A stretch of 64,000 nt of DNA from positions 59,639-123,638 of the forward strand of contig JADGRH010000001.1 of NCBI GenBank assembly GCA_017881075.1, in the 5' to 3' direction. The notes beneath the pieces were generated by a model, which worked only from the letters and a program-made list of their open reading frames with translations, searched no databases and was not told the DNA's origin. This stretch comes from Minisyncoccota bacterium (lineage in GTDB: Bacteria > Patescibacteriota > Minisyncoccia > Phycocordibacterales > CAJBRS01). This document shows positions 6,001-64,000 of the stretch, piece by piece. The position numbers and the translations under genes were made by a program. The stretch's first letter is position 1, and every line of letters starts with the position of its first letter.

Positions 6001-9000
6001 ACCGGCACCCTCTCCGCTTCAAATCTCTCCGGCACCAACACTGGCGATGTAACTCTAGGAGCAATTGCTGCTACTCCAAACGCAAACGGAGCTTCTCTTT
6101 CCGGGCAAGTCTTAACTTTGCAGCCAGCCTCGACTTCCTTTGGCGGTGTCGTTACAACCGGAACTCAATCGTTTACAGGAGATAAGACCTTTACATCAAA
6201 CTCACTCGCAGCTTTACAAGTTACGGGGAGTAACACAGGAAGAACCTCTATCACTGTTCAAAATACGAACGCATCAGGTAATGCATCATTCTACTTTCAA
6301 AATGATAGAGGTAGCTTCAATTCATACGGAGGCCTTTTGACAGGAGGTTCGTCAGATGTAGGAGGTACTTTATTTGGGCTTGCTCGTGCGGACAGAACCT
6401 TCTTGATAAATGATGGTACTAATGCTCTAGGACTTGCTCTTGGTACTTTGACAGCACAGCCATTGACACTAGGAACGAATAATTTGGCACGGGTCACAAT
6501 TCTAAGTGGTGGTAATGTCGGAATTGGAACGACAGCACCGACCAGCACACTTGAATTATATAGAGGCGATAACAATATCGGGCCAACTCTTACTTTGAAT
6601 AATCCTACTGGAAATGCAGGCACCGCCGGATCAGCAATAGACTTTCTCGGTTATAGCGGAGCGAGCCAGCCGGTTACTAATAGGATTAAAACCATCGACG
6701 ATGGAGCTTATGGCTATCATTTAGCATTTCTCACCAAAGCGGATTCTTCGGGAGGAGCACTTTTTGAAGCAATGAGGATACAAGGAGGCACGGGCAATGT
6801 TGGGATCGCCACCACCACTCCGGGCTTTCCACTTACAGTGACAGGCGCTTCTAATTTCACCGGCGCCCTCAACTTTAACGGCGCCGCTGGATCTTCCGGA
6901 AACATCCTCCAATCAAACGGATCGGGAAGCGCTCCAAGCTGGGTATCAACCACCACACTCGGTACCATTGCGGTAAACCAAGGCGGCACCGGCCAAACTA
7001 CTTATACAAACGGCCAGCTCTTGATCGGAAACACCACCGGAAATACATTAACAAAAGCAACTCTCACGGGCACCGCTAACCAAGTGAATGTTACGAATGG
7101 TGCTGGTTCAATTACCCTTTCTACTCCTCAAAATATTGGTACCACATCCTCTCCCACATTTAACTCTCTCAATATCGCTAATGGATCAACATATAGCGGT
7201 TGGATAGGTAATTTCGGGCTAGGCTCTGACTGGGTTGGATTTACCGCAGATGGAGCGCAAAGTGCTTCAAAGTATGCATTCGAAGCAACGGCATCATATG
7301 GTGAAACTGTTTTTAATGCTAACGGTGGGGGGACATTGCCCTTCATTGATTTTCGATTTTCCAACGGGGGTGTTGAACCTATTACCAGAATATATGGGTC
7401 TGGCGGGCTCTATTTTGGTAGTGTGGCTGGTGCTGCTGACCCCGGTTTACAGAACCTCTCTATCTTTTCTGGAAAACTTGGTGTTGGGGTTCTAACCGCT
7501 TCTGCCAAAATCCACGCCCTTTCCACCACCGAGCAATTAAGACTAGGCTACGATGCTTCCAACTACAATTCCTTTACTGTCGGTTCAACTGGAAGTCTCA
7601 CAGTCGCCGCTGTAGGAACTAATCCTAATATTACCCTCACGCCGGGCGGAACTGGGTATACCATATTGAACGGCAACGTCGGCATCGGGACGACGACGCC
7701 AGGGGCAAAGTTGAGTGTCAAAGGTGGTGGTACTACAACAGGTCTTAACTTCCAAACTACAAACTCTAATAACCTACCTTTGGTCACAATATTAGACTCC
7801 GGCAACGTCGGCATCGGGACGACGACGCCGGGGAATAAACTCCAGATAAATGCTGCTCTTGCCACTGCTTCTGAATCTTTGCTTCGTCTGTCTGGAGGGT
7901 CAACGGGATTTGCCGGGACCAATGATGCAGGCACTGCGTATTCTCTTGTGTTCGATGGTACTGCATATAGTGTTGGTACTGGAGTTGTGCAACGTGATGG
8001 TGCAAAGATTGAGATGGCAAAAGAGGCATCGTGGAACGAAGCCGGTGGTGGCGGCGGTCCGCTTGGAGCATTATTGTTCTACACGAGTGCAGGTTCAATT
8101 GCATCTCCGAAGCTAACGGAAAAAATGAGAATAACAAGTCTCGGCAACGTCGGTATCGGGACGACGGCGCCGGATTCGAAGTTAACTATTTCATCAAATA
8201 CCGCAACCTTACCGTCTGGGGCAGCCACACTTCGTATTGCTGAAGCCGATACCGTGCAGACTAGCGCGGTTATAGACGCTTTTGCTACTAACGGGCTTTT
8301 TAACTTTCGACGGGCCGACACTACGGCGGCAAGCCCCTCGGCGGTCCAGTCTGGTGAAAATTTGGGCGTGTTCGGCGCCGCTGGCTACGGAACCAGTGCT
8401 TATTCCGGCACCCGCGCCCGCGTTGGATTTTTTGCCGATGAGACTTGGACGAATACTGCTAATGGAACATCCATTCGCTTTAGCACTACGCTCAATGGCG
8501 CCGCCACAGCGGGAGGCACGGAACGCATGAGAATAGATAACGCCGGCAATGTCGGAATTGGCACCTCCACCCCGGACCAAGCTCTAGTTGTATCAGGTAC
8601 GGCAAGAGCTACCAACTTACTCGGAGGTGCCACAACTCTTTCAACCGATGCTTCAGGTAACATTATTCGTACTCCATCAGACATTAGTCTCAAGGAAAAC
8701 ATCCAAAATATCGATAGCGCTGATGCTCTAAGCCAGGTTCTAGCCCTTCAAGGAGTAACCTATTTCTGGAAGGACAAGGCGAGATTTGGCACTGCCCAAG
8801 AAATTGGCTTCATCGCCCAGCAAGTCGAACCGATTGTCCCCCAAGTAGTTAAAAGCGGAGGAGCCTACAAATCCCTTAACTATGGTAACTTAACAGCCGT
8901 CCTTGCCAGCGCCATTCAAGAGCAACAAAAACAGATTACAGCCAATGCTTCAACGACGCGGGCCAATGCCTCAAGCACCGCCTCCGCTCTTTCTTCACTG

Positions 9001-9606
9001 GATCTTAGAGTAAGTACCTTAGAGAACCTGGGACCCCAAAGAGGGGGTGGAGGAGTCAGCACTGGAATCTTTGAAGATCTCCTTTCAACACTACAATCCT
9101 TTGGCACCGAAATCGTTGACGGAGTTTCTTATATGAAGAACTTCCTTGCTGAACATCTCACTACCCAGAACTTGACTATAAAAGGCAAAGATATTACGAA
9201 GACAGGATTCACTATTTATGATCGGGCTACCGGCGATCCTATCTGCGTCTATTTTGAGAACGGGATCCAAAAGACTTCCCCAGGCGAGTGTCCCGACAGC
9301 ACAGCTACTTCAACTCCTCCAACAGACACTACCTCCATTGTCTCAGACAACAACCCCCCAATAGATCCCCTCACCGGATCCAGCACTCCTCCGATCTCCG
9401 ATATCGGATCAAATCCTCCTCCAGACCAACCCCCTCCAACACCACCACCCGCCGACCCCACTCCGCCCTCCGATCCCACCTCCTTGATAGCGCCGAGCGC
9501 CCCAACATCACCACCAGCCCCTGATACGTCAGGATCGAATCCTTCTGATTCGACGTCCGCTCCCGCTGATCCGGGCTCGGCTCCTTCCAATGGGGGAGGC
9601 AATTAG
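1..9606 (+). CDS. Giant repetitive surface/fibre-like protein (5'-truncated at window edge; >3194 aa) with C-terminal phage tail-spike-type intramolecular chaperone (peptidase S74-like) domain and Pro/Thr-rich tail
   Basis: Frame 1 is open from nt 1 with no upstream stop, and the ORF-track start at 22 is GTG. The motif GNVGIGTT(T/A)PGxKL recurs about 18 times. Near the C-terminus, 'SDISLKENIQNI...LQGVTYFWKD...IGFIAQQVEPIVPQVV...YGNLTAVLASAIQEQQ' fits the chaperone-of-endosialidase / S74 consensus. The last ~100 aa are P/T/S-rich low complexity. Stop is TAG at 9604-9606. Confidence 0.8.
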   Translation, partial: ATSSIFRVNANGNVGIGTTTPGYKLHVKSASDIQFALDVDSGGRYTSQYFLNNGSTRAVNFWDETSNNLTIGTSHSGADLIFNRGLNAAAMTISGTTGNVGIGTTTPSTKLSVAGQGFFETSTETPVGSGTPGPGIRIGYLTSGDYGYITSSNSGVAAKNLVLQPGGTGNVGINQTVPLDLLHIAGDNIATIRLQNTISGGKTYQIGSAISGVSNAGFQIYNVTNSRSEMVIDTNGNVGIGTTAPGGKLSVSGGAAIGSSYATTAVSDGNLIVSGSLGIGTTTPGSKLDIWGNLNVATGTTPALFVNTATGNVGIGVINPGKPLDVTGDIRASGNLLAGGGNAYLFNGGVRLGNSSGEIDLSANDMIYGPNAGTTNHIFKIGGNEIARINSTGIGIGTTTPGAKLHALSTTEQLRLGYDASNYNSFTVGSTGSLTVAAVGTNPNITLTPGGTGYTILNGNVGIGTTAPGQKLDVAGNINVSTNSAYMYNGLNVITASTTLSNYFFGGSGNLTMTGNANTASGYQALYSNTTGTTNTASGFRALYSNTTGTYNTASGINALYSNTTGTRNTANGLGALYSNTTGGNNAGYGINSGYGLTTGNNNTLIGPSDSVVASYNQVTTGSNNISIGNNVAVASPTASNQLNIGNLIYGTGLNGTGATISGGNVGIGTIAPDKKLEVNLGTSDALRLTYNDSDGSAANYTDFNVSSVGSLTIAPTGTNPNITLTPGGTGYTILNGNVGIGTSTPTLPLVVNGKIMSYGNSTNQITMSPAGNGVDSYAHLQIFNTAGYGQGYLDFYTYPGQGLGTPTVRWRGVDLGSYTGGHVFSASAASQNGASTDVLFVGNTGATGVLTNHFGVGVLTNAPVSALDVNGGVSIGSYAAVNAAPSNGLIVSGNVGIGTTTPGFNLQVAGTGVSAAFGAAANNNGAGVAFLGSSTGKNFFIGNQYNIGGALEITPSTANGGSTFTTPVVTILSTGNVGIGTTAPGTKLEVVGTASSTGLQVNGNGAITGTISAPTFVATTNNIAFLSLKSLSSTIGVGVTNGDVLSFDWGGIYPKGYQFRTSATQGINIDSSGNVGIGTTAPGASLQVAGTGIWSSVYGFSAGGNAPLAVGTAVLRTGNDFRIQDDGSFKINQSGAAAFLTILNTGNVGIGTTAPREKLDVAGNITTDWADRFIGTEYQDGSTYRMGMKVVTSDRDLQIINKSAGENFSGISFHTGTGPTERMRIDKGGNVGIGTTNPGNKLVVSGAGYTYAEVDASSSSGTYSGGYRAYNDVGAQVLLDIYASSSVGTYLGQPLSNLVRLTDYSGSSGIAIGTYTNTPLTLGTNNSARLVINGAGNVGIGTTAPSAKLQVNVASGYANTWWSNDSVTTPFSAIYGAHVVGSFGQNYSTGGGADFAGFSHANNEVGVEFDGYVGGTSPTAPALLLAGWKSNGTTGASAMSGTDIIAQIAAGASPVVTVQANGNVGIGTTSPVSKLDVSVTSPGSTNFGLSVRDSTVTPTYASNADNLLTVRGAGSSVTTWKGRITAGGDNVEFLMGEYNSLAWLGAHNAALNAWTNIYINPDGGSNAYIGDSGGGVNNIPVPILAVINSTGNVGIGTTAPDVNLAIGSQLLGAQGLSGAVLNLGGSSSQMPGINIGQDATHAIEFYWIGNATPGSATAALETSGYLNPFAINGSKTTIQSAAGNVILATGGGNVGIGTTAPGGKLSVSGGAAIGSSYATTAVSDGNLIVSGSLGIGTTAPGSKIQAVGGYISTFDNTGYGPAFMQGASGVSYFGNTGTSRIAFGNNTNYERMTILDNGNVGIGTTTPGFLLTVAGTSNITGAAIFGSTLGVTGATTLSSTLGVTGQTTLANASSTNLTVSTNSYLGTVQSGTWNGTTIAVANGGTGQTTYTNGQLLIGNTTGNTLTKAALTGTTNQVVVTNSTGSITLSTPQDIATASTPTFASTTLSNFTLGSIPFFGSSGKLGQNNANFFWDGTNNRLGIGTSTPDTLLTVAGNGRFTGTLSASNLSGTNTGDVTLGAIAATPNANGASLSGQVLTLQPASTSFGGVVTTGTQSFTGDKTFTSNSLAALQVTGSNTGRTSITVQNTNASGNASFYFQNDRGSFNSYGGLLTGGSSDVGGTLFGLARADRTFLINDGTNALGLALGTLTAQPLTLGTNNLARVTILSGGNVGIGTTAPTSTLELYRGDNNIGPTLTLNNPTGNAGTAGSAIDFLGYSGASQPVTNRIKTIDDGAYGYHLAFLTKADSSGGALFEAMRIQGGTGNVGIATTTPGFPLTVTGASNFTGALNFNGAAGSSGNILQSNGSGSAPSWVSTTTLGTIAVNQGGTGQTTYTNGQLLIGNTTGNTLTKATLTGTANQVNVTNGAGSITLSTPQNIGTTSSPTFNSLNIANGSTYSGWIGNFGLGSDWVGFTADGAQSASKYAFEATASYGETVFNANGGGTLPFIDFRFSNGGVEPITRIYGSGGLYFGSVAGAADPGLQNLSIFSGKLGVGVLTASAKIHALSTTEQLRLGYDASNYNSFTVGSTGSLTVAAVGTNPNITLTPGGTGYTILNGNVGIGTTTPGAKLSVKGGGTTTGLNFQTTNSNNLPLVTILDSGNVGIGTTTPGNKLQINAALATASESLLRLSGGSTGFAGTNDAGTAYSLVFDGTAYSVGTGVVQRDGAKIEMAKEASWNEAGGGGGPLGALLFYTSAGSIASPKLTEKMRITSLGNVGIGTTAPDSKLTISSNTATLPSGAATLRIAEADTVQTSAVIDAFATNGLFNFRRADTTAASPSAVQSGENLGVFGAAGYGTSAYSGTRARVGFFADETWTNTANGTSIRFSTTLNGAATAGGTERMRIDNAGNVGIGTSTPDQALVVSGTARATNLLGGATTLSTDASGNIIRTPSDISLKENIQNIDSADALSQVLALQGVTYFWKDKARFGTAQEIGFIAQQVEPIVPQVVKSGGAYKSLNYGNLTAVLASAIQEQQKQITANASTTRANASSTASALSSLDLRVSTLENLGPQRGGGGVSTGIFEDLLSTLQSFGTEIVDGVSYMKNFLAEHLTTQNLTIKGKDITKTGFTIYDRATGDPICVYFENGIQKTSPGECPDSTATSTPPTDTTSIVSDNNPPIDPLTGSSTPPISDIGSNPPPDQPPPTPPPADPTPPSDPTSLIAPSAPTSPPAPDTSGSNPSDSTSAPADPGSAPSNGGGN
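1561..1800 (+). repeat. In-frame tandem repeat of a ~60-nt unit (about 4 copies), encoding NTASG(Y/F/I)xALYSNTTGTxNTASG, inside the giant gene
   Basis: 'caccgccagtggt...gcgctctatagcaacaccactggaacc' is visibly repeated at 1553-1612, 1613-1672, 1673-1732 and 1733-1790. Confidence 0.8.
9391..9412. repeat. REP-type palindrome TCCGATATCGGA (family 1), embedded in the 3' coding region of the giant gene (encodes PISDIGS)
   Basis: Perfect 12-nt palindrome tccgatatcgga preceded by the partial duplicate tccgatc. The same core recurs at 10438-10449 and 10520-10531. Confidence 0.7.
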
Positions 9607-9736
9607 GGGTTAATCCCTGGTGGAATATCCATAAGAGGTTAAACCTCTTATGAGCTTAGATCATGATTACTCACATTCTCATTAAAATTTCCATTAGTTT
9701 ACACGGTCTAGTGATGAAATATCGCTTCTTATTGCG

Positions 9737-9762
9737 TTAATCTACGCTCCGATCTCCGATGT
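9737..9762. repeat. REP-type near-palindrome (tccgatgtcgga variant of family 1) overlapping the 3' end of the RAYT gene
   Basis: 'gctccgatctccgatgtcggatcgaattc' has the same core as the other family-1 copies with a central 2-nt change. It encodes the RAYT C-terminus ...PTSEIGA. Confidence 0.6.
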
Positions 9763-10428
9763 CGGATCGAATTCATCAAATGTTTTGGCAGGACTTGTGT
9801 CTACAAAATGCTTGTACTCTTCTTTGTTTTTAAATTGGTCAAGAATGAGATCTGTTTTTAGAAGTTCACCCCATCGATTTTCTCCAATATAGTCTTGATA
9901 ACTTGACCAAGGGTAAAAATGCTCCTTGTCCTTCCACCCCGGCAATTCTCGTGCGTTTCTATGAATATAAGCGGAAAGGTGAAGCAACTGAGTATTGTCT
10001 GCAATCAGGACACTCTTGAAAGCTCCCTGAAATAGGTGCCCGATATGAAGATCTTTATATTTTTCATTATTATATTTTGTAGCGGAGATTATAATTCTTT
10101 GTAAATATTTTGATAAAGCTCCATCTTTTTTCCCTGTCGCACTTAGATGAAAGTGATTTGGCATTAAGCCGAATGAGTGAAGCTCCACAGTACGCGAGGC
10201 GACGATCTCCGAAATGATTTTCTTGCTGACCTGGAATTTCCTATGCTTCTCAAAGTATTTTACATATTGAGATAGGTGGCTAAACTTAATCGGAGACTGG
10301 AAAAATAGTATAGTAAAAAGAAAGCGAATATAATCGCGATTATCGTGGAAAATAATTTGCTTATTATTGCCTCTGCTAAGGAGATGAAATACTTCACCCG
10401 CGGCCAAGTTGTCTTTTCTATATGGCAT
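9742..10428 (-). CDS. REP-associated tyrosine transposase (RAYT; IS200/IS605-like HUH transposase)
   Basis: HUH motif 'LMPNHFHL', size about 228 aa, conserved Tyr-containing C-terminal region, flanked on both sides by family-1 REP palindromes. Confidence 0.75.
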   Translation of the reverse strand: MPYRKDNLAAGEVFHLLSRGNNKQIIFHDNRDYIRFLFTILFFQSPIKFSHLSQYVKYFEKHRKFQVSKKIISEIVASRTVELHSFGLMPNHFHLSATGKKDGALSKYLQRIIISATKYNNEKYKDLHIGHLFQGAFKSVLIADNTQLLHLSAYIHRNARELPGWKDKEHFYPWSSYQDYIGENRWGELLKTDLILDQFKNKEEYKHFVDTSPAKTFDEFDPTSEIGA

Positions 10429-10458
10429 TATCTTCCGATCTCCGATATCGGAAGATTT
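10429..10458. repeat. REP hairpin (family 1): atcttccgat-ctccgat-atcggaagat
   Basis: 10-bp inverted repeat arms atcttccgat/atcggaagat enclosing the tccgatatcgga core, immediately 5' of the RAYT start. Confidence 0.7.
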
Positions 10459-10512: not shown

Positions 10513-10558
10513 ACACTAGTCCGATATCGGAGAATGGAGGATTCATTATACTAGTGAT
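10513..10558. repeat. REP hairpin (family 1) with outer cactagt/actagtg inverted repeat
   Basis: 'cactagtccgatatcggagaatggaggattcattatactagtg' contains the perfect tccgatatcgga core and 7-bp outer inverted repeats. Confidence 0.6.
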
Positions 10559-10598: not shown

Positions 10599-11624
10599 AT
10601 GAGCAAAATACGAGTGGCAATAAACGGAGCGGGAAGGATTGGGCGGGCATTTTACAAGGTGGCAAGCAAGCGGCCGGAAGTGGAGATCGTGGCCATCAAT
10701 GACGTGGGTGACATCAATAATATTGCCTATCTTTTTAAATATGACAGTGTCTATGGGCGAAGTGGTCTGGATATTAAAGTTGCTAATGATCAGAGAAGTT
10801 TAAATATAGACGGTAAGAGCGTAGCTTATCTCAGTGAGAAAGATCCAGCCCTGCTTCCGTGGAAGGATTTGAATATTGACGTAGTAGTTGAATCTACAGG
10901 CTTTTTCACTAGTTTTGAAAAATCAAAACCGCATCTTGATGCTGGAGCGAAGAGAGTGGTGATAACCGCGCCAGTCAAAGAAGACGCTTCGGCTGGCGCA
11001 CCGACGGTCTTGATGGGAATCAACGAAGGTGAGCTAAAGAATTCCAAGATAAGTTCGAACGCTTCCTGCACCACTAACTCCGCCAGTCCGATCTTGGCAA
11101 TACTTGACGAAACCATAGGAGTTGAAAAAGCAATATTGACAACAGTGCACGGATACACGGCCAGTCAATCAATTGTGGACGGGCCGAATAAAAAAGATTG
11201 GAAAGAGGGCCGAGCGGCGGCACAAAATATCGTGCCGACTTCCACCGGCTCGGCCATTGCCGTAGCCAAAGCCCTGACACAGTTTAAAAATAAGTTTGAT
11301 GGCATTTCCATGCGAGTGCCGGTTCCGGCAGGATCCATTGCCGATATCACTTTTATTGCAAAGCGAAACACCACTGTTGAAGAGGTTAATTCTATTTTAA
11401 AAAAGGCGGCAACCGATCCCCGCTGGCAGAAAATTTTCACCGTGACCGAAGAGCAGATTGTCTCCACTGATATTATCGGAGCTCCTCACGCCGCTATTGC
11501 TGATCTTGGACTGACTCGGGTAGTTGATAATAATCTGGTGAAAGTGCTGTCCTGGTATGACAATGAGATGGGGTACACTTACTCGTTGGTAGAGCATGTA
11601 ATAGAAGCAGGAAAGTATCTATGA
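10599..11624 (+). CDS. gap: Glyceraldehyde-3-phosphate dehydrogenase
   Basis: N-terminal NAD-binding 'INGAGRIGR', catalytic 'SNASCTTNS', GAPDH-typical length (341 aa). Its stop overlaps the rpiB start (ATGA). Confidence 0.9.
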   Translation: MSKIRVAINGAGRIGRAFYKVASKRPEVEIVAINDVGDINNIAYLFKYDSVYGRSGLDIKVANDQRSLNIDGKSVAYLSEKDPALLPWKDLNIDVVVESTGFFTSFEKSKPHLDAGAKRVVITAPVKEDASAGAPTVLMGINEGELKNSKISSNASCTTNSASPILAILDETIGVEKAILTTVHGYTASQSIVDGPNKKDWKEGRAAAQNIVPTSTGSAIAVAKALTQFKNKFDGISMRVPVPAGSIADITFIAKRNTTVEEVNSILKKAATDPRWQKIFTVTEEQIVSTDIIGAPHAAIADLGLTRVVDNNLVKVLSWYDNEMGYTYSLVEHVIEAGKYL

Positions 11625-12124
11625 AAATTTATCTTGCCTCAGATCACGCCGGTTTTAAATTAAAAGACATACTTACTCCTTTCATTAAGGAGTTGGGATA
11701 CGAGGTATTGGATCTGGGAGCATTCACCTACAAAGCGGGGGATGATTATCCTGATTATATTAAACTGGCGGCAGAAAAAGTCTCGGAAGATCCGGAAAAT
11801 GGTAAGGCTATTATTTTGGGAGCTTCCGGTGAAGGGGAGGCGATCGTTGCCAATAAATATAGGGGTGTTCGTGCAACTGTTTATTACGGAGGTAATAGAG
11901 AAATCATCAAGCTTTCTCGTCATGATAATGATTCAAATATCCTGTCCCTAGGGGCCAGATTTCTAAATGAAAAAGAAGCAAAGGAAATGGTTAAATTATG
12001 GCTTGGCGCTAAATTTTCAGAGGAGGAGACAAGACATGTCCGCCGTATAAAGAAAATAGCCGAAATCGAAAAAGTGGCTGGGAAAGGCAAAAAGACAAAA
12101 CTTCGAAAGTTTTTAAGATTTTAA
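11621..12124 (+). CDS. rpiB: Ribose-5-phosphate isomerase B (RpiB/LacAB family) with Lys-rich C-terminal tail
   Basis: 'MKIYLASDHAGFKLKD...' N-terminus and overall RpiB-like pattern. Translationally coupled to gap. Confidence 0.75.
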   Translation: MKIYLASDHAGFKLKDILTPFIKELGYEVLDLGAFTYKAGDDYPDYIKLAAEKVSEDPENGKAIILGASGEGEAIVANKYRGVRATVYYGGNREIIKLSRHDNDSNILSLGARFLNEKEAKEMVKLWLGAKFSEEETRHVRRIKKIAEIEKVAGKGKKTKLRKFLRF

Positions 12125-12129
12125 ATTGA

Positions 12130-12804
12130 ATGGAGATTCTTCCTGCAATAATGCCCGAAAGTTATGACGACCTGCGCGATAAACTGGCCGAGGTCTCAAC
12201 TTTGGTGACGGTCGTCCAGATAGATGTTATGGACGGCCGGTTCGTGGAATCAAAGAGCTGGCCATACAATCTGCATGGCACTGATACTGATTTTAGTAAG
12301 ATTTTACATGAAGATGAGGGCTTGCCGTTTTGGGATAGGCTGGATTTTGAAATTGATTTAATAGTGGAAGATCCACAGCAACAGGTGGAGAAATGGATGA
12401 AGGCTGGCGCCTCTAGGCTGGTAATTCATATTGAAAGTATTAAAGATGATGCTGTCAGTTTGCTTGAAGAAGTGAAGAGGGGTGAAGTTGGAGTAGGTCT
12501 TGCTTTGGATATGGACACCGATGTTGAAGAGGTGTTACCGTTTTTAGATTATGTGGACTTTGTGCAGTTGATGGGGATCGACCACGATGGTTTTCAGGGC
12601 GCCCCTTTTGACCAGAAAGTGCTTGAGAAAATAAAGAGATTGAAAGAGGAGTCGCCGTCGACATTGATTAGTGTCGACGGCGGAGTCAATTTAGAGACGG
12701 CGCCCGCTTTAATAGAGGCGGGCGCCGACCGACTGATCATCGGCTCAGCTATTTTTGAGAGTGGAGATATTGAGGGCGCTATAACCGATTTTGAGAGTTT
12801 ATAG
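12130..12804 (+). CDS. rpe: Ribulose-phosphate 3-epimerase-like protein
   Basis: 'VVQIDVMDGRFV' metal-binding signature of RPE, TIM-barrel-size protein (224 aa), located in the pentose-phosphate cluster. Confidence 0.6.
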   Translation: MEILPAIMPESYDDLRDKLAEVSTLVTVVQIDVMDGRFVESKSWPYNLHGTDTDFSKILHEDEGLPFWDRLDFEIDLIVEDPQQQVEKWMKAGASRLVIHIESIKDDAVSLLEEVKRGEVGVGLALDMDTDVEEVLPFLDYVDFVQLMGIDHDGFQGAPFDQKVLEKIKRLKEESPSTLISVDGGVNLETAPALIEAGADRLIIGSAIFESGDIEGAITDFESL

Positions 12805-12925: not shown

Positions 12926-13792
12926 ATGTCTTTAACCGACAAAGAGATCCAACATTTAGAAGAAAAAGCGAACGACATCCGTCTTTCTATCATTGAAATG
13001 CTCATTGAAGCCGGCTCCGGCCACACCGCTGGCCCTCTCGGTATGGCCGACATTTTCACTGCTCTTTATTTTCAAATCTTAAATCACGACCCGAAAAAGC
13101 CAGACTGGCCGGAAAGGGATCGATTGGTCTTATCAAATGGCCACATCTGCCCGGTTCTATATTCCACCATGGCTCATTCAGGTTATTTTCCGGTGGAAGA
13201 ATTAAAGACTCTGCGTAAATTTGGCTCCCGTCTCCAAGGTCATCCCCATAGAGATTTTCTTCCATATCTTGAAAATAGTTCCGGCCCACTCGGATCAGGT
13301 CTTTCGCAAGCCACTGGTATGGCCCTTGCCGATAGAATTGATCGCGGTGATAGCAATGATCGCTACATTTATTGCCTGATGAGTGATGGGGAATTGGATG
13401 CCGGAAATAGTTGGGAGGGAGCGATGCTTGCCGGCAAGGAGAAATTGAGAAACCTGATCGCCATCGTTGACCGCAATAATATTCAGATAGACGGCTTTAC
13501 CGAAGACATCATGCCACTTGAAAATCTCCGAGCTCGTTGGGAGGCTTGGAATTGGCACGTGCTCGAGATAGACGGCCACAATTTCAATGAGATCGTTGAT
13601 GCGGTCGGTGAGGCAAAGGCTGTTTTTGAAAAACCAACAGTCATAATTGCCCACACTATTCCCGGCAAAGGAGTAAAGGAATTTGAACGAGACTATCGAT
13701 GGCACGGTAAAGCACCCAATAAAGAAGAAGCGAAAATGGCATTGAACGAATTACGAACATTAGGAGGAAAAATTAAAAGCGAACTTGAATAA
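12926..13792 (+). CDS. Transketolase, N-terminal (TPP-binding) subunit of a split transketolase
   Basis: 'GSGHTAGPLGMADIFTALYF' and 'LSNGH' motifs. 288 aa, matching the N-terminal half only. Overlaps the next gene by 8 nt. Confidence 0.85.
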   Translation: MSLTDKEIQHLEEKANDIRLSIIEMLIEAGSGHTAGPLGMADIFTALYFQILNHDPKKPDWPERDRLVLSNGHICPVLYSTMAHSGYFPVEELKTLRKFGSRLQGHPHRDFLPYLENSSGPLGSGLSQATGMALADRIDRGDSNDRYIYCLMSDGELDAGNSWEGAMLAGKEKLRNLIAIVDRNNIQIDGFTEDIMPLENLRARWEAWNWHVLEIDGHNFNEIVDAVGEAKAVFEKPTVIIAHTIPGKGVKEFERDYRWHGKAPNKEEAKMALNELRTLGGKIKSELE

Positions 13793-14804
13793 TCTAAACC
13801 CCAAAATTTTTGATAAAGATGTAGAACAAGTGCCGATCCGAAAAGGATTCGGCGAAGGGCTTCTCATTGCCGGAGAAAAAAATGAAAATGTTGTCGGGCT
13901 TTGCGCTGATTTAACAGAGTCAACACAAATGCATCTTTTCAAACAAAAATTTCCAAATCGATTCGTTCAAGTCGGTGTGGCCGAGCAGAATTTAGCCACC
14001 GTTGCTTCCGGTATGACCGCTATGGGAAAGATCCCGTTCATATCTTCTTACGCCATGTTCAGTCCCGGCCGCAATTGGGAGCAGATCCGTACCACTATTT
14101 GCTATAACAATGCTAACGTCAAAATTGCCGGCAGCCACGCCGGAGTTTCGGTCGGGCCTGATGGCGGGAGCCATCAGGCCCTTGAAGACATCTCTATTAC
14201 GAGAGTAATCCCTCGAATGACAGTCATTTCGCCTTGTGATGCCATTGAAGCCAGAAAAGCTACTCTCGCCGCGGCCGAGATGGTGGGGCCTGTTTATATC
14301 CGTCTTGCTCGCGAGAAAACTCCCATCATCACTACCGAAGAGACACCTTTTGAGATCGGCCTTGGTCAAATATTTTATGATTCGGATGAGAGGGGTTCGA
14401 CCTCTAAAATTGAGGGGTCGAACCCCTCCAAAAGGGCGGGGATCATTGCCACGGGTGCTCTTGTTTACCAAGCAATAATAGCAGCTAAAGAATTGGAAAA
14501 GGAAGGGATTTCAGTCAAAGTTTTAAATCTTGCCACCATCAAACCACTTGATGAAGCTGCTATCTTGCTCTTGGCAAAAGAGACGAGAGCTATCGTTACT
14601 GTAGAAGAACATCAGATCAATGGGGGAATGGGTTCGGCTGTGGCCGAAAGTTTGGCTAAACATTTTCCAGTACCAGTGGAATTCATTGGTGCCAAAGATA
14701 AGTTTGGTCAGTCCGGAACTCCAGCAGAACTGATTGAGCACTATGGCATGGGCATCGATTCCATCAAAAAAGCAGTGAAGGATGTCTTAGCCCGAAAAAA
14801 ATAA
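13785..14804 (+). CDS. Transketolase, C-terminal (pyrimidine-binding) subunit, carrying an in-frame palindromic insertion
   Basis: 'FVQVGVAEQNLATVASGM...' Pyr-domain signature. Residues ERGSTSKIEGSNPSKR are encoded by a 13-bp perfect inverted repeat. Confidence 0.85.
   Translation: MNNLNPKIFDKDVEQVPIRKGFGEGLLIAGEKNENVVGLCADLTESTQMHLFKQKFPNRFVQVGVAEQNLATVASGMTAMGKIPFISSYAMFSPGRNWEQIRTTICYNNANVKIAGSHAGVSVGPDGGSHQALEDISITRVIPRMTVISPCDAIEARKATLAAAEMVGPVYIRLAREKTPIITTEETPFEIGLGQIFYDSDERGSTSKIEGSNPSKRAGIIATGALVYQAIIAAKELEKEGISVKVLNLATIKPLDEAAILLLAKETRAIVTVEEHQINGGMGSAVAESLAKHFPVPVEFIGAKDKFGQSGTPAELIEHYGMGIDSIKKAVKDVLARKK
14390..14428. repeat. Perfect 13-bp inverted repeat (gaggggttcgacc ... ggtcgaacccctc, 13-nt spacer) lying in frame inside the tkt C-subunit gene
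   Basis: Direct inspection: 14390-14402 is the reverse complement of 14416-14428. Confidence 0.8.
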
Positions 14805-16733: not shown

Positions 16734-18360
16734 AATTCAGAAGATAATCAAAGGAGAGGCCGAAGACGATGAAACCACTCTCAAAACTTATAGCCGTGAC
16801 GCTAGTCTTTTTTTGGTCCGGCCGAGTTTGGTGGTTTTTCCGAAAGACACAGAAGATTTGAAAGCTTTAGTTAAATATGTAAATGAAAATAAAGCGGACC
16901 GGCCGGAACTTTCTCTTACCGGCCGGTCTGCCGGAACGGATATGACTGGCGGACCGCTGAACGACTCCATCATTCTGGATTTCACACGCCATTTCAAAAA
17001 GGAAAAAGTGGACGTTGAGGCTCTTTCCGCTGTGGTAGAGCCGGGCGTATTCTATCATGATTTTGAGACCGACACTCTGCCGAAACACATCTCACTACCC
17101 GTTTATCCGGCCTCAAAACAGTTGGCCGCTCTCGGTGGCATGATTATGAATAATGCTGCTGGCGAAAAGACTCTTCGTTATGGTCAAATCAGAGATTTCG
17201 TTAATGAAATTTCCATGATCCTTTCCGATGGAAATGAGTATTCATTTCGGAAACTGAATAAAAAAGAATTGGATGAAAAGCTCGCCCTCCAGAATTTCGA
17301 GGGCGAGCTCTACCGAAAAGTCCACACTTTAATTGAAAATAATTATGATCTAATTCAAAAGGCTAAGCCAAAAACTACTAAAAATTCATCCGGCTATTCT
17401 CTTTGGCGAGTGTGGGACCGCCAGACTTTTGATATGAGTCAACTATTCGTCGGCTCGCAGGGGACTCTCGGGTTGCTCGCCGAAGCCAAGATGAGATTGA
17501 TAAAAGAAAAACCATATCGAAAATTAATTGCCACCTTTTTTAAATCTTGGGATGATCTACCGGCGATGGTTAATGCCATCTTGCCGTTTAATCCTGAAAG
17601 TATGGAAGCTTTTGATGACACCACTCTTAAGTTGGGAATTCAGTTTATGCCGGAAATTGCCAAACGAGCACATGAGCATTTCTGGCGCTTTGCATTACGT
17701 TTTCTGCCGGAAGCTTTTATCGGAATAGAAATGGGTGGCCTCCCTAAATTAATTGTTCTTGTTGAATTATCAGAGGACTCTCAAGAGGAAATAGATAAAA
17801 AGGTTCCAGAGATTGAAAATATTCTAAAAACTTTTCCAGTGCATGTGCGGGTACTTGATGATGGGCCCGATGCGGAGAAATATTGGATAATGCGACGGGA
17901 GAGTTTCAATCTTCTTCGTCAACATGTTCATGGCCTGAGCACTGCTCCTTTCATTGACGACTTTGCCATTGATCCGGCCAAGATGCCGGAATTTCTGCCA
18001 AAGCTTTTGAAAATTCTTAAAGATCATGGCATTAAGGCCAACATTGCCGGCCACGCCGGTAATGGAAATTATCATATTATTCCACTAATGGATCTGAAGG
18101 AGGCAAGCGAGAGAGACAAAATATTGCCAGTAGCCAAGCTGGTCTATGATTTGATCATTCAATCGGGTGGCACCATTACTGCCGAACACAATGATGGTAT
18201 CATTCGCACTCCATTTGTGGAGCAAATGTTTGGTCACGAAATGTATCATCTATTTGAAGAAGTAAAGAAGATTCTTGATCCGCAGGATATTTTTAACCCT
18301 GGCAAGAAGGTAGGGGGTACCTTAAAATATCTAGAAGAGCATATTGCCAAAGGCGCCTGA
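16723..18360 (+). CDS. FAD-linked oxidase (GlcD / D-lactate dehydrogenase-like FAD-binding oxidoreductase)
   Basis: PCMH-type FAD-binding N-terminal region ('PSLVVFPKDTEDLKALV...LTGRSAGTDMTGGPL') and a C-terminal FAD-oxidase domain. 545 aa. Confidence 0.6.
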   Translation: MKDEIQKIIKGEAEDDETTLKTYSRDASLFLVRPSLVVFPKDTEDLKALVKYVNENKADRPELSLTGRSAGTDMTGGPLNDSIILDFTRHFKKEKVDVEALSAVVEPGVFYHDFETDTLPKHISLPVYPASKQLAALGGMIMNNAAGEKTLRYGQIRDFVNEISMILSDGNEYSFRKLNKKELDEKLALQNFEGELYRKVHTLIENNYDLIQKAKPKTTKNSSGYSLWRVWDRQTFDMSQLFVGSQGTLGLLAEAKMRLIKEKPYRKLIATFFKSWDDLPAMVNAILPFNPESMEAFDDTTLKLGIQFMPEIAKRAHEHFWRFALRFLPEAFIGIEMGGLPKLIVLVELSEDSQEEIDKKVPEIENILKTFPVHVRVLDDGPDAEKYWIMRRESFNLLRQHVHGLSTAPFIDDFAIDPAKMPEFLPKLLKILKDHGIKANIAGHAGNGNYHIIPLMDLKEASERDKILPVAKLVYDLIIQSGGTITAEHNDGIIRTPFVEQMFGHEMYHLFEEVKKILDPQDIFNPGKKVGGTLKYLEEHIAKGA

Positions 18361-18403: not shown

Positions 18404-19078
18404 ATGCTGACTTTATCGATAGAAAAGCGCCAAAAGAAAGAGAAATTAGAGAAAATTAGGAAAAACGGCAAAATCCCGGCTGTTTTTTATGGACGCAAAG
18501 AAGCGGCTACCTCTATCGCTCTGTCTGAAGTGGATTTTCTAAAAGCCTGGAAAGAAGCGGGAGAATCATCCGTCCTAGTATTGAAAGGGGTAGGTGATGA
18601 GCATGAGGCTCTGATTCACGCCGTTGACACCGATCCGGTAACAGGCCGAGTTCGTCACGCTGATTTTTATGTAATTGAGAAAGGTAAGAAGCTGAAGATC
18701 AAAGTGCCGATTGAATTTACTGGCATTGCTCCGGCAGTGAAAGAGCTTGGAGGTATGTTGGTCAAAGTTCTTTATGAGTTGGAAGTCGAGGCTTTACCAA
18801 AAGATCTACCTCATAAAATTGAAGTTAGTATTTCCACACTTGTTAATTTTGAAAGTCAGATTCTGGCCAAGGATGTTAATTTACCGGCCGGTGTAGAATT
18901 AGTTATTGACCCGGAAGAAGTAGTGGCTCTGACCGCCGAAGCCAAAGAAGAAGTGGAGGAAGTGGTTGCACCGGTAGATCTTTCCGCCATTGAAGTAGAA
19001 GAGAAAGGTAAGAAGAAAGAAGAAGGGGAAGAGGCGGCGGCCGAAGAGAAGCCGGCCGCCGCCGCCGAAACGAAGTAA
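18404..19078 (+). CDS. rplY: 50S ribosomal protein L25 / general stress protein Ctc, with acidic C-terminal tail
   Basis: 'RKNGKIPAVFYG' N-terminus, beta-barrel pattern, Glu/Ala-rich tail. Confidence 0.75.
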   Translation: MLTLSIEKRQKKEKLEKIRKNGKIPAVFYGRKEAATSIALSEVDFLKAWKEAGESSVLVLKGVGDEHEALIHAVDTDPVTGRVRHADFYVIEKGKKLKIKVPIEFTGIAPAVKELGGMLVKVLYELEVEALPKDLPHKIEVSISTLVNFESQILAKDVNLPAGVELVIDPEEVVALTAEAKEEVEEVVAPVDLSAIEVEEKGKKKEEGEEAAAEEKPAAAAETK

Positions 19079-22062: not shown

Positions 22063-22088
22063 ACGCTTAAAATCATAACATATCTCTT

Positions 22089-22107
22089 GCAGAGGTCTGA
22101 CCTCTGC
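22089..22107. repeat. REP palindrome family 2: GCAGAGGTCTGACCTCTGC
   Basis: Perfect 19-nt palindrome. Copies occur at 22089-22107, 22190-22208 and 22916-22934. Confidence 0.8.
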
Positions 22108-22189
22108 AGCCGAGTTTCTGCAGATTTTTTTTATCTATAATTTATATTTCCTTTAATGTTTCTTCATAGTCGGTACTATAAAATATCTT

Positions 22190-22208
22190 GCAGAGGTCAG
22201 ACCTCTGC
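22190..22208. repeat. REP palindrome family 2 copy (central A variant) directly abutting the RAYT start codon
   Basis: gcagaggtcagacctctgc, followed 3 nt later by the RAYT ATG at 22212. Confidence 0.8.
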
Positions 22209-22211
22209 AAG

Positions 22212-22907
22212 ATGAGAAAAGAACCATTTAATGTCGGATCATACATTCATGTAATAAAAAGAGGCCATAGAAAGTCTCTCATTGTTCGGGATGAGAATGA
22301 CAGAAATCATTTTGAGCGAATCTTGTATTACCTGAATCATAAGAAATCATTGCCCGAACGTTGGTCTCAGATTTTAAGAGAAAAGAGAATTAAGAATTTT
22401 GATTTTCCTAAGGAGTGGGGAAAAAGAAAGCCTTTGGTAAAAATTGTAGCTTATGCTCTAATGCCGAACCATCTTCATCTATTTCTGAAAGAAATTGTTG
22501 AAGGAGGAGTAACGACTTTCATGAGAAAAATAGGCAATAGCATGACAGCTCATTTTAATCTCAGACATGAAGAATCTGGAACGCTTTTTCCAGGTGCCTA
22601 TCGGTCTAAAACAATTGAAGACGATGCTTATTTTCGTTACTGTGGAGTATATATCATGGTCAAAAATATTTTTGAGCTTTATCCTGGTGGACTCGAGCGA
22701 GCAAAAAAAGAATTTGAGATAGCATTTCAATGGGCTTTAAATTATAGATTCAGCAGTTTGCCGGAATATCTGAATATCAGGACTCAACCGATAATCGATA
22801 AGGAATTGTTAGGGGAACTCTTTTTCGGTCCTAAGGACTTCAAGGATTTTGCTAGAGATTGTATTTTAGGAAGGAAACCTGATTTTAATGAGATAAATCT
22901 AGAGTAA
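22212..22907 (+). CDS. REP-associated tyrosine transposase (RAYT, second distinct copy/family)
   Basis: HUH motif 'LMPNHLHLF', about 231 aa, bracketed by family-2 REP palindromes. The ORF-track start at 22188 lies inside the REP, so the second Met (22212) was chosen. Confidence 0.75.
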   Translation: MRKEPFNVGSYIHVIKRGHRKSLIVRDENDRNHFERILYYLNHKKSLPERWSQILREKRIKNFDFPKEWGKRKPLVKIVAYALMPNHLHLFLKEIVEGGVTTFMRKIGNSMTAHFNLRHEESGTLFPGAYRSKTIEDDAYFRYCGVYIMVKNIFELYPGGLERAKKEFEIAFQWALNYRFSSLPEYLNIRTQPIIDKELLGELFFGPKDFKDFARDCILGRKPDFNEINLE

Positions 22908-22915
22908 ATGAAATC

Positions 22916-22934
22916 TGCAGAGGTCTGACCTCTG
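22916..22934. repeat. REP palindrome family 2 copy 3' of the RAYT gene
   Basis: ctgcagaggtctgacctctgcag is a 23-nt palindrome 9 nt after the RAYT stop. Confidence 0.8.
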
Positions 22935-22990
22935 CAGGAAATTTATGGGTTGCGCCGATAATTCTAATTTGCTACACTACCTCCTACACT

Positions 22991-34682: not shown

Positions 34683-34787
34683 GGGAGAGAATGTCGGGCG
34701 AAAACCGAAGGTTTTCGCCCATTTTTATATCACAGGAATTAAAAATATCGAAGTCTGACTTCGATAAATCCTTGTTATAATGGCGAA

Positions 34788-44705: not shown

Positions 44706-44737
44706 AAAAAAACGCCGCCCAAAAGGCGGCGTTTTTT
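44706..44737. terminator. Bidirectional Rho-independent terminator
   Basis: aaaaaaa-cgccgcc-caaaa-ggcggcg-tttttt between convergent genes. Confidence 0.8.
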
Positions 44738-59663: not shown

Positions 59664-59666
59664 CAA

Positions 59667-59713
59667 AAAAGAAAACAGCGGCCGCCTAAAGGCGGCCGCT
59701 GTTTTCTTTTTGG
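59667..59713. terminator. Bidirectional Rho-independent terminator overlapping the thrS stop
   Basis: aaaagaaaacagcggccgcc-taaa-ggcggccgctgttttcttttt. Confidence 0.8.
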
Positions 59714-61620: not shown

Positions 61621-64000
61621 TCATAATTCTTTAATCGCCTCCGCGATCATGCTGGTCTCGCCGTTGCGGTCGGACATCCGGCCTTTGACCGCAATGCATT
61701 TTTCCAGTGCGATAAAAGATTTGTATTTCTCACAAGTCTTTGGAAACACCACCACCTCAATATTTCCGGAGAAATCGGCGATCTTCAGGAAATACATATT
61801 TTCTCCTTTTTTAGTCCTCACCTCTTTTAATTCTTCTACAATACCTTCAACTACGCCGAGCATCCCTTCTCTTAACTCCGCTTTCGTCTTGGCGATATTT
61901 GTTTGTTTTTTCTCTAGCTGTTCTTTGAATTTATCCAAAGGATGACCGCTGATGTAAAGGCCGAGAAGCTCCTTTTCCCAGATGAGCTTCTCGGCCGCCG
62001 TTGCTTCTGGCGCCGCCGAGAGGCGCAAGGATGGTAGGGAAATGCTCGCTCCCAGAGCCCCGAATAATGACTCCTGATTAGTTGGAGCGCGATGTGTTTC
62101 CTTATTGTATTGAATAATGTCTTCAATATTGGCAAGTAACTGGCCTCTTTCGCCGAAGTGATCCATCGCCCCCGCCTTTATCAAAGCTTCCAATGATTTT
62201 TTATTTAAATTTTTATCGCTTACTCGGTTCAGCAAATCCTCCAGAGATTTGAACTTACCGCCCTTCTTCCTCTCATTGATAATGGAATGAGCAATGCCTT
62301 CGCCGAAATTCTTGATGGTCGTTAGGCCGAAACGAATTTGATCTGGCGGTAAGGAAGTCTGACTTCCCTTAGGAAGTCTGACTTCCTTACCGCTCTTTAT
62401 CACCGTAAAATCCTCAAAACTTTCATTGATATCCGGCGGCAGAACGGGGATCCTCATTCGTTTGCATTCCGTGATGATCTCCGAGATCTTCTCCACATCT
62501 CCCGATTCTGCCGTCATCACTGCAGCCATATAAATACATGGGAAGTTGGCCTTCATGTAAGCGGTCTGGTAAGCCACCTTGCCGTAGCTGGCAGCATGGG
62601 CTTTGTTGAATCCGTAGGCCTGAAAAGGTTCAAAAAGTTTCCATAATTTCTCGGCAAAATCTTTTGTCTGACCCTTCTTGATGATACCCTCGATCAATTT
62701 TTCTTTTTGAGCGGCCATTTCTTTTGGAATTTTCTTACCCATAGCCTTTCGGAATTTATCCGCCTCGAGCCAGGAGTAGCCGGCAAGCTCTATGGCGCTA
62801 AGGAGTACGTCGTCCTGATAGACAATAAGACCATAAGATTCCTCCAGATATTTTTTCATTCGGGGATCGGGGTAGGAAATAAGATTCGGATTATTTTTTC
62901 TTCGGACATATTCCGGGATCACTTCCATCGGGCCGGGGCGATAGAGAGCCACCATGGCGTTAATGTCGTGAATGGTGGAAGGTCGAAGGTCTTTCAAGTA
63001 ACGGGTCATGCCGGAGCCGTTCAACTGAAAGAGTCCGGCCGTTTCTCCTTTGGCTAGAAGTTCAAATGTTTTCTTATCATTTAAAGGAACGTTTTCAATA
63101 TCAATATCAATTCCCTCAATGGTTTTCACCAGAGAGACGGAGTCGGCTAAAATGGCAAGATTTCGGATACCGAGAAAATCAAATTTTAAAAGCCCGGCAT
63201 TACTTTCATCTACAGAATGCATGTCGTATTGGGTGATGATCTTACCCTCATCTAATCCGGCGCTTTTCGGATCAAATTGTAGCGGCACAATTTCAGTCAG
63301 AGGAATAGGGGAGATAACCACTCCGGCGGCGTGAACGCTAATGTGTCTTGCCAAGCCTTCAATTTTTTTAGCCATGTCAATGATCGTTGCCACATCTTTG
63401 TCTTGTTGGTAAAGCTGTTTCAGCTCCGACACTTTCGCAAAGGCCCGATCAATGGTCATGGGAAATCCTTGGGCGCCGATAGGAATTAATTTTGAAATTT
63501 TGTCACCCACGTCGTAAGGGAAGCCGAGAGCCCGGGCAACGTCACGCACCGCTCCGCGGGCCATCATCGTTCCGAATGTTCCAATTTGCGCCACTTTGTC
63601 TTTTCCATATTTCTCTTTAGCATAAGCAATAACTTCATCACGACGATTGTCGGCAAAATCCATATCAATGTCCGGCGCCGATGGTCGCTCAAGATTAAGG
63701 AATCTTTCAAAAGGTAATTTATATTCAAGTGGGTCTACATTGGTAATACCGGCGAGATATGTGACTATGGAACCGGCGACAGAACCTCGGATAGTGGTCA
63801 GGATCTTGTTCTCGTGTGCAAAACGCATCAGGTCGGACACTACCAGGAAATAGGAGGCATAGCCCTTCTTTTCAATGATATTCAGTTCGTATTCAATCCT
63901 TTCTTTTACCTTTTCCGATAGTTCCAATTTCCGCCTTTCAAGACCGCTATATACAAGCTCGCGCAATTCCTCATCGATCGATTTGCCTTTTGTCGCTTTA
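61621..64000 (-). CDS. dnaE: DNA polymerase III alpha subunit, C-terminal ~790 aa (5' part lies beyond the window end)
   Basis: '...GTFGTMMARGAVRDVARALG', 'DIDIDF', fingers/beta-binding region and a C-terminal OB fold. The frame stays open to nt 64000 (the ORF-track 'start' at 63966 is a TTG inside a continuing frame). Confidence 0.85.
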   Translation of the reverse strand, partial: KATKGKSIDEELRELVYSGLERRKLELSEKVKERIEYELNIIEKKGYASYFLVVSDLMRFAHENKILTTIRGSVAGSIVTYLAGITNVDPLEYKLPFERFLNLERPSAPDIDMDFADNRRDEVIAYAKEKYGKDKVAQIGTFGTMMARGAVRDVARALGFPYDVGDKISKLIPIGAQGFPMTIDRAFAKVSELKQLYQQDKDVATIIDMAKKIEGLARHISVHAAGVVISPIPLTEIVPLQFDPKSAGLDEGKIITQYDMHSVDESNAGLLKFDFLGIRNLAILADSVSLVKTIEGIDIDIENVPLNDKKTFELLAKGETAGLFQLNGSGMTRYLKDLRPSTIHDINAMVALYRPGPMEVIPEYVRRKNNPNLISYPDPRMKKYLEESYGLIVYQDDVLLSAIELAGYSWLEADKFRKAMGKKIPKEMAAQKEKLIEGIIKKGQTKDFAEKLWKLFEPFQAYGFNKAHAASYGKVAYQTAYMKANFPCIYMAAVMTAESGDVEKISEIITECKRMRIPVLPPDINESFEDFTVIKSGKEVRLPKGSQTSLPPDQIRFGLTTIKNFGEGIAHSIINERKKGGKFKSLEDLLNRVSDKNLNKKSLEALIKAGAMDHFGERGQLLANIEDIIQYNKETHRAPTNQESLFGALGASISLPSLRLSAAPEATAAEKLIWEKELLGLYISGHPLDKFKEQLEKKQTNIAKTKAELREGMLGVVEGIVEELKEVRTKKGENMYFLKIADFSGNIEVVVFPKTCEKYKSFIALEKCIAVKGRMSDRNGETSMIAEAIKEL

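Follow-up and report, generated by a model that had tools for sequence, protein, structure and literature searches.

A palindromic doublet of probable REP type lies in frame within the split transketolase gene tktC of a Patescibacteria genome

The sequence analyzed here is a stretch of 64,000 nucleotides from a Minisyncoccota bacterium (Patescibacteria; contig JADGRH010000001.1, positions 59,639 to 123,638), referred to as the window. It carries tktC, the gene for the C-terminal subunit of a split transketolase, and a palindromic element lies in frame inside this gene. TktC matched the C-terminal chain of the split transketolase 6yaj with E = 7e-80 and human TKT with E = 5e-51. Its best homologues carry the names Parcubacteria, Paceibacterota or Patescibacteria. 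The gene for the N-terminal subunit precedes tktC, and PF00456 was detected on the equivalent neighbour gene in another tktC locus (L119). The exact TktC protein is present in both the NCBI assembly, on a 169-kb contig, and a Logan assembly.

The palindrome consists of two perfect 13-mers. The left arm GAGGGGTTCGACC (14390-14402) and the right arm GGTCGAACCCCTC (14416-14428) are exact reverse complements separated by a 13-nt spacer; the preliminary description of this locus had reported such an inverted repeat, and direct reading of the sequence confirmed it. In the reading frame, the site reads gat tcg gat ga, then GAGGGGTTCGACCTC, TAAAATT and GAGGGGTCGAACCCCTC, and then c aaa agg gcg ggg. 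The pairing runs on inward and gives a 16-bp stem, with one G-T (G-U) pair, and a 7-nt loop. The minimum free energy (MFE) of the 81-nt stretch around the hairpin as RNA was -36.5 kcal/mol, as compared with -22.3 +/- 3.2 kcal/mol for dinucleotide shuffles (z = -4.46), and none of the 200 shuffles matched this stability. For the loop-coding stretch alone, the MFE z was -5.55. When the whole window was shuffled, a perfect stem of at least 13 bp with a loop of at most 16 nt appeared in none of 20 shuffles. The palindrome is genuine and far beyond chance. The range 14386-14436 previously assigned to it does contain the palindrome but corresponds to the range of the peptide ERGSTSKIEGSNPSKR (TktC residues 202-217, nt 14388-14435), whereas the element itself is 14390-14428. 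A resemblance to the tRNA T-arm (GGTTCGA) was also considered and dropped, because a stem of 4-6 bp with a 5-nt loop is unlike the T-arm geometry.

In an alignment of 120 homologues of 71-80% identity, the six closest to the window TktC (75-80% identical) all lack the insert. Between the conserved F and the G of GIIATG, the window TktC has 23 residues as against 8-9 in these six. In the alignments with the two closest solved homologues in the PDB, a 13-residue gap was found at the hairpin site in both. The element begins after the second base of an Asp codon, with GA before it and C behind it. In silico removal of the element joins GA to C and yields the in-frame sequence FYDSDDKRAGIIATG. The loop after excision, FYDSDDKRAG, has 8 residues; in length and pattern it is canonical (compare FFDSDNPQVG and FESEKSQVG). 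Since precise excision restores a canonical in-frame loop, the insert is the 39-nt palindrome itself, that is, 13 codons and not 16. Thus, of the 16-residue insertion proposed earlier, the extra in-frame segment stands but the length does not. The peptide derived from the insert would read GSTSKIEGSNPSK. These comparisons suggest that the 39 nt were inserted and did not belong to the ancestral gene, with boundaries placed by homologues of 75-80% identity.

An AlphaFold 2 (AF2) model of TktC had a mean predicted local distance difference test score (pLDDT) of 88.7, a predicted template modelling score (pTM) of 0.90 and a TM score of 0.93 to 6yaj. Where the C-terminal domain begins, a turn links the strands 195-199 and 217-222, and residues 204-207 of this turn have a pLDDT of less than 50. 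The model therefore supports a placement of the insert in a surface turn, and the 13 extra residues are probably disordered.

The preliminary description regarded transketolases as normally contiguous at this position. In Patescibacteria, the turn is in fact hypervariable in length, with 0 to about 30 extra residues of many unrelated sequences among the 120 homologues. The insert sequence of the window TktC was absent from all 119 aligned homologues, and the inserts at the site are mutually unrelated. DNA was compared for nine insert-bearing tktC loops, namely that of the window and those of eight other genes (L118-L125). Three of the nine contain strong hairpins, one a weak hairpin, and five no significant hairpin, so that the idea that all inserts at this turn are hairpins is ruled out. 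The loop of L118 carries a perfect palindrome with a 20-bp stem, TGTAGAAATCAGATGTCTAC agacg GTAGACATCTGATTTCTACA, and that of L119 carries two hairpins. L120 possesses only the left arm of the L118 palindrome; 28 nt are identical, although the genes are 76% identical overall. The two loci represent either a singlet and a doublet or the outcome of an inverted duplication. No significant hairpin was detected in L121, L122, L124 and L125. In L123, the tktC loop of P0077, an A-rich short tandem repeat (AAATCCGAAATCCGAAATCCTAAATCCGAAAC) was found, which encodes peptides such as IRNPKSETNPK; similar peptides occur in P0042, P0098 and P0008. Judging from the sequences, tandem repeats would be a different route of loop expansion at this turn. 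Hairpin insertion is thus one of several growth routes for a permissive turn. Orthologous segments of equivalent length without a palindrome had been named beforehand as evidence against an insertion. Such segments formally exist in L121, L122, L124 and L125, but they are unrelated in sequence to the window insert. They show that the site is permissive and are no argument against insertion.

The tktC hairpin belongs to a dispersed family. One genome per species was scanned with the pattern GGGGTTCGACC-N(1-30)-GGTCGAACCCC. The two-arm pattern, 22-24 nt long, was detected in five Patescibacteria metagenome-assembled genomes (MAGs; L024, L033, L068, L075 and L084), and scattered matches also occurred in high-GC genomes. 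A scan of JGI metagenomes with a stricter right arm detected 22 loci, of which 20, where the chance expectation is far below one, have a low or moderate GC content. The family core can be written as [T/A]A-GGGGTTCGACC(CC)-loop-(GG)GGTCGAACCCC-T[A/T], and the members share [T/A]A-GGGGTTCGACCCC-short loop-GGGGTCGAACCCC-T[A/T]. The flanks are conserved: 18 of the 22 copies have A at position -1, and 20 have T or A at -2. Members were found at at least 12 other loci of low-GC MAGs or metagenome contigs, with at most two on any one contig. Each unit is a small stem-loop (GGGG/CCCC around TCGAA), and the element is consequently a doublet of inverted units. All doublet members examined (L096-L117, in addition to the five MAGs) show the same u-U arrangement. 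The window copy departs from the family in that CC is absent from the left unit and the spacer is longer; L103 has the same truncation of the left unit. No stop codon is present in the family arms in any frame, and the window copy is open in four of the six frames. The only case of multiple copies within one genome was Hungatella sp. UBA5385, a Clostridia MAG with about 70 copies of the same core. These copies (DHOR01 contigs, among L001-L095) read ttaaaattGGGGTTCGACCCTTTG.T.CAAAGGGTCGAACCCCaattttaaa; their outer stems covary, and their 12-nt core is that of the Patescibacteria family.

Family members also occur in frame in other genes. In RNase HII (L105), the hairpin residues form an 11-residue insertion relative to the Thermotoga maritima enzyme (3o3g). 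In MiaA, three genomes (L075, L084 and L115) share a hairpin at one site; it encodes the peptide GVRPPIGGRTP, with changes confined to the loop. As the segment lengths are similar to those of Escherichia coli MiaA, the MiaA hairpin was not accepted as an established insertion, and what is seen is the conservation of the hairpin at this site. Further in-frame hairpins were found in MurD (L098/L106), a glycosyltransferase (L103) and a TagA-like protein (L099). In the comparison of MurD (L098) with the PDB, the hairpin-bearing N-terminal part was outside the alignment. Other copies are intergenic; in L024 and L068, for example, the GGGGTTCGACCCC doublet directly follows a gene for an IscS-like protein. 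The L068 protein (6636-7928) itself has an extra segment, RKPHYAEASRGKQENKKTWEG, which is absent from the L024 orthologue (7399-7905).

In other genomes, the same core stands beside genes that resemble those for REP-associated tyrosine transposases (RAYTs), where REP stands for repetitive extragenic palindromic sequence. In L108, a Y1 HUH transposase gene is bracketed by a doublet on the upstream side, 17 nt from the start, and by a single unit (CCCTAGGGGTCGAACCCCTAGGG) on the downstream side, 2 nt from the stop. In the Hungatella contig L038, a homologous RAYT-like gene has a doublet 11 nt after the stop and a single unit upstream (copies at 395-429 and 1367-1380). In L107, a doublet lies inside the RAYT-like gene. 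The proteins match Pfam Y1_Tnp, and their best NCBIfam match is REP_Tyr_transpos, below its cutoff. By its sequence, the layout in L108 and L038 is the REPtron arrangement known from REP/RAYT systems.

The window possesses two RAYT-like genes of its own (Table 1). With Pfam Y1_Tnp (cutoff 23 bits), gene 1 scored 24.3 and gene 2 scored 37.9 bits; with NCBIfam REP_Tyr_transpos, the best match, the scores were 24.8 and 31.6 bits, respectively (cutoff 80). The HUH motif is readable in both proteins, whereas the Tyr motif is present as AYIHRNA in gene 2 and only as VYIMVKN in gene 1. Three copies of CTGCAGAGGTC-N-GACCTCTGCAG flank gene 1 (22088-22937). Around gene 2, TCCGAYATCGGAGATCGGA occurs in four copies as against none expected; besides the one in the palindrome at the start codon, they lie at 9390-9408, 9748-9766 and 10520-10538. 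When at most two mismatches were allowed, AGAGGTCNGACCTCT was found at five sites in the window, as compared with 0.13 expected: the three gene-1 repeats, the 9630-9652 palindrome and unit 1 of the tktC hairpin. Palindromic units centred on GTCNGAC were detected six times (0.04 expected), and two of them form a second in-frame doublet, in dnaE. This doublet, GCGGTAAGGAAGTCTGACTTCC ttag GGAAGTCTGACTTCCTTACCGC with the peptide SGKEVRLPKGSQTSLPP, coincides exactly with a 15-residue gap in the alignment with Taq Pol III alpha (3e0d). Three copies of the unit GAAGTCNGACTTC are present in the window (0.17 expected). Because RAYT-like genes, related palindromes and the dnaE doublet are all present in the window, the tktC insert is no isolated oddity in this genome.

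Table 1. Coordinates of the genes and palindromic features in the window
Feature	Position	Strand	Remarks
tktC	13785..14804	+	C-terminal subunit of split transketolase (Pyr and C-terminal domains), 339 aa
N-terminal subunit of split transketolase	12926..13792	+	8-nt overlap with tktC
rpiB	11621-12124		Same operon as tkt genes
rpe	12130-12804		Same operon as tkt genes
39-nt palindromic element, candidate REP doublet (REPIN-like)	14390..14428	+	13 codons; codes part of TktC residues 202-215
Unit 1, GAGGGGTTCGACCTC	14390..14404	+	Without CC relative to family; self-folding possible (GAGG/CCTC)
Spacer/loop, TAAAATT	14405..14411	+
Unit 2, GAGGGGTCGAACCCCTC	14412..14428	+	Family core; 6-bp stem, 5-nt loop
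RAYT-like Y1 HUH transposase gene 1	22212..22907	+	PNHLHL; VYIMVKN at position of Tyr motif
Palindrome TGCAGAGGTC t GACCTCTGCA	22088..22108		Upstream of RAYT-like gene 1
Palindrome ATCTTGCAGAGGTC a GACCTCTGCAAGAT	22185..22213		Abuts ATG of RAYT-like gene 1
Palindrome CTGCAGAGGTC t GACCTCTGCAG	22915..22937		8 nt past stop of RAYT-like gene 1
RAYT-like Y1 HUH transposase gene 2	9742..10428	-	PNHFHL, AYIHRNA; 26% identical to gene 1
Palindrome	10430..10456		Abuts ATG of RAYT-like gene 2; contains 19-nt repeat TCCGAYATCGGAGATCGGA
Palindrome CATAAGAGGTT a AACCTCTTATG	9630..9652		Downstream of RAYT-like gene 2; same AGRGGTYNRACCTCT motif
Palindromic doublet in dnaE (open reading frame 61621-63966)	62346..62393	-	Second in-frame doublet; 48 nt, 16 codons; units GGAAGTCTGACTTCC
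Single unit TATCGAAGTC t GACTTCGATA	34746..34766		Intergenic; same type as dnaE units
Other intragenic palindromes	12698-12727, 16897-16928, 17279-17309, 19033-19063

Some further hairpins were observed in the window. An intergenic hairpin between dnaE and thrS, TCCCCTCCTCA ga TGAGGAGGGGA (61497-61520), has the same arms as the first tktC-loop hairpin of L119 (894-913), CCCCTCCTCA gt TGAGGAGGGG. These two may represent a second shared hairpin family or a motif like a Shine-Dalgarno/anti-Shine-Dalgarno pair. At 59666-59711 and 44707-44737, long perfect hairpins stand beside runs of A and T; one of them has a 22-bp stem (AAAAAGAAAACAGCGGCCGCCT), and they look like bidirectional or intrinsic terminators.

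Based on these results, we think that the tktC palindrome is probably an intragenic REP doublet with the architecture of a REPIN, whose family brackets RAYT-like genes in other genomes. By analogy with the REP/RAYT and IS200/IS605 systems, the hairpin would form on single-stranded DNA at the replication fork, and a RAYT supplied in trans could cut and rejoin it and paste it elsewhere without target duplication. In a gene-dense Patescibacteria genome, many such landings would fall inside genes. The copies that survive would be those that add a multiple of three bases, are free of stops in the frame that is read and sit in a permissive surface turn. The tktC copy would have landed at phase 2 of the Asp codon, in the turn that leads from the last strand preceding the C-terminal domain into that domain's first strand. 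HUH Y1 transposases (IS200/IS605 TnpA and RAYTs) act on hairpins of single-stranded DNA and leave no target duplication. Thus, the absence of a target-site duplication at the tktC element is consistent with mobility of the RAYT type. We infer movement of the tktC copy by a RAYT, translation of the insert and continued activity of the enzyme; most likely, the insert is neutral for the enzyme. A small REP-type hairpin tolerated in frame in an essential enzyme had already been proposed. The bracketing of RAYT-like genes by the same core and the copies at other loci support this proposal, in which the activity of the enzyme is presumed.

Several observations weigh against a RAYT-mobilized REP doublet. 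The search for further copies of the 13-mer that had been recommended, as run in the 64-kb window, found no second copy at up to two mismatches. Both RAYT-like genes of the window are flanked by palindromes that differ from the tktC core, and a RAYT gene with the GGGGTTCGACC core at its flanks was not encountered in this genome, as far as the 64-kb window was read. The likeness of unit 1 to AGAGGTCNGACCTCT is post hoc, and 2 of the 14 specified bases mismatch. Scores of the RAYT-like proteins were 18-32 bits, far below the NCBIfam equivalog cutoff of 80. The boundaries of the insertion were placed with homologues of 75-80% identity and not with an allele of the same lineage. In addition, the excess of intragenic palindromes points to a second, non-transpositional process that makes hairpins.

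Such a process could be local template switching (quasipalindrome formation or inverted duplication), in which a self-pairing loop sequence is copied as its reverse complement without a transposase. The window contains 23 perfect hairpins with a stem of at least 10 bp and a loop of at most 16 nt, as compared with about one in shuffles, and about half of them lie inside open reading frames. Some cover invariant motifs, namely GPDGGSHQA of TktC (14154-14181) and VDGG (12653-12682) and AGAD of rpe. These palindromes result from codon choice and cannot be insertions. In several (for example 14154-14181 and 12653-12682), an invariant motif contains one arm, and the neighbouring codons that contain the other are less conserved. 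The GPDG palindrome is peculiar to this genome, its stem being 11-12 bp long as against 3-7 bp in eight homologues. The presence of only the left arm of the L118 palindrome in L120 also fits an inverted duplication, but it is equally explained by decay from doublet to singlet, which has been described for REPINs (PMC3116915). As the origin of the tktC element, template switching is unlikely. Both tktC arms are the exact core of the family that brackets RAYT genes and occurs at at least 12 unrelated loci, so that a de novo origin would require chance re-creation of this core. Furthermore, excision of the whole 39 nt gives the canonical loop, and no arm need therefore be ancestral. The window data and the L118/L120 pair nevertheless suggest that template switching also makes or perfects hairpins here, and it might have doubled a single unit.

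A separate function for which the hairpin or the encoded peptide is selected, for example as an mRNA structure that tunes translation or decay of the tkt operon or as a surface peptide in an enzyme complex, is improbable. The hairpin is very stable as RNA, the conservation of the MiaA copy in three genomes suggests that stems can be maintained, and REPs elsewhere have been reported as RNA elements (PMC3733652). However, the insert is confined to the window TktC among the aligned homologues, the other inserts at the site are unrelated, and its peptide is predicted to be disordered. A search of Rfam with 14200-14600 in E-value mode returned only a chance miRNA match (E = 0.57) and no known RNA family. 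A function of this kind would also be compatible with a REP origin. The variable length of the turn and the five insert-bearing loops without a significant hairpin, such as the tandem repeat of L123, might be taken to mean that the loop, being hypervariable, simply varies by ordinary indels and that the palindrome is incidental. This reading is very improbable given the MFE of the loop, the absence of stems of at least 13 bp from the window shuffles and the identity of the hairpin to a dispersed family. Finally, the source is a MAG, and library artefacts such as fold-back chimeras can yield palindromes. An artefact of assembly or sequencing was rejected as scarcely credible: the element is internal to the 169-kb contig, its length is exactly 39 nt, it keeps the frame and contains no stop, the identical TktC protein is found in the NCBI and Logan assemblies, and the same hairpin family is present in many independent assemblies.

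A REPIN is a doublet of inverted REPs that forms a hairpin, and REPINs and RAYTs have been described in detail (PMC3116915). The tktC element resembles them in that two GC-rich palindromic units of 15 and 17 nt, inverted to each other, form one hairpin of 39 nt. The same core brackets single Y1 HUH genes (L108 and L038), no target duplication is seen, and RAYT-like genes with flanking palindromes occur in the same window. As for the tag beside the stem, a degenerate lead-in, (N)TAG, AAG or GAG, is present, and GTAG is not strictly present. In tktC, the lead-ins are TGAG and TTAG (the latter as the reverse complement of unit 1), and the family consensus is [T/A]A before GGGG; GTAG itself was found in some family copies (L097 and, internally, L108). 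The element also differs from known REPs and REPINs in other respects. Its host belongs to the Patescibacteria. It is intragenic, whereas most REPs are extragenic, although exceptions are documented (PMC3733652). Its doublet measures 39 nt (units of 15-17 nt), whereas Pseudomonas REPINs measure roughly 70-110 bp. Its copy number is apparently low, with one copy in 64 kb. The RAYT-like proteins, moreover, are distant from the curated RAYT model.

Intragenic REPs, as singlets and mostly as dimers, have been catalogued in several bacteria, including a case in dnaE of Rickettsia conorii, and RPE-4 and RPE-6 of Rickettsia (Rickettsia palindromic elements, RPEs) are REPs (PMC3733652). Different REPs also occur at about the same recB site in two Xanthomonas species (PMC3733652). 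Like these elements, the tktC palindrome is an in-frame palindrome in a housekeeping gene that adds surface residues; dimers are common among them, and dnaE is among their targets, as in the window. In contrast, RPE-1 is 100-150 bp long and specific to Rickettsia, whereas the tktC element is 39 nt long with another core sequence and occurs in another phylum, and intragenic REP dimers encode 20-30 residues as compared with 13 here (PMC3733652). Quasipalindrome mutations are similar as local inverted repeats in coding sequence and fit the excess in the window and the L118/L120 pair, but they leave unexplained why the arms equal a family found at many loci and beside RAYT genes.

MITEs (miniature inverted-repeat transposable elements) such as Correia and Nezha are likewise small, non-autonomous palindromic repeats in or near genes. 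MITEs have terminal inverted repeats derived from insertion sequences and produce target-site duplications. At the tktC element, no direct repeat is present at the borders (GGATGA and CAAAAG flanks), and the whole element is a palindrome. With neither a target-site duplication nor terminal inverted repeats of an insertion sequence, the element is not MITE-like, contrary to the preliminary description.

Thus, the tktC case is a new example of the intragenic REPs and RPEs already described; what it adds concerns host range and detail, whereas the principle was known. No description of REP/RAYT or palindromic in-frame elements in the candidate phyla radiation (CPR)/Patescibacteria was found in the literature searches made here, which is weak evidence of absence. 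As a tentative generalization, which we regard as doubtful, small hairpin repeats in Patescibacteria, whose intergenic space is very limited, might routinely colonize coding sequence. They would be maybe RAYT-mobilized REP doublets, perhaps amplified and kept perfect by template switching, and a general source of lineage-specific insertions in core proteins, with the same turns hit independently by unrelated families. If this is true, a REP core common to Patescibacteria and a Clostridia MAG would point either to horizontal spread of a RAYT/REP pair or to a structural constraint on recognition by these RAYTs. For annotation, such inserts should not be taken for frameshifts, introns or assembly errors. 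The comparison pinpoints a structurally permissive turn in the C-terminal domain of transketolase. On the reading as REP doublets, hairpins of the REP/RAYT type would exist in Patescibacteria (CPR) and be carried inside essential genes, in tktC and dnaE within a single 64-kb window, and they are a possible source of some unexplained short insertions in CPR proteins.

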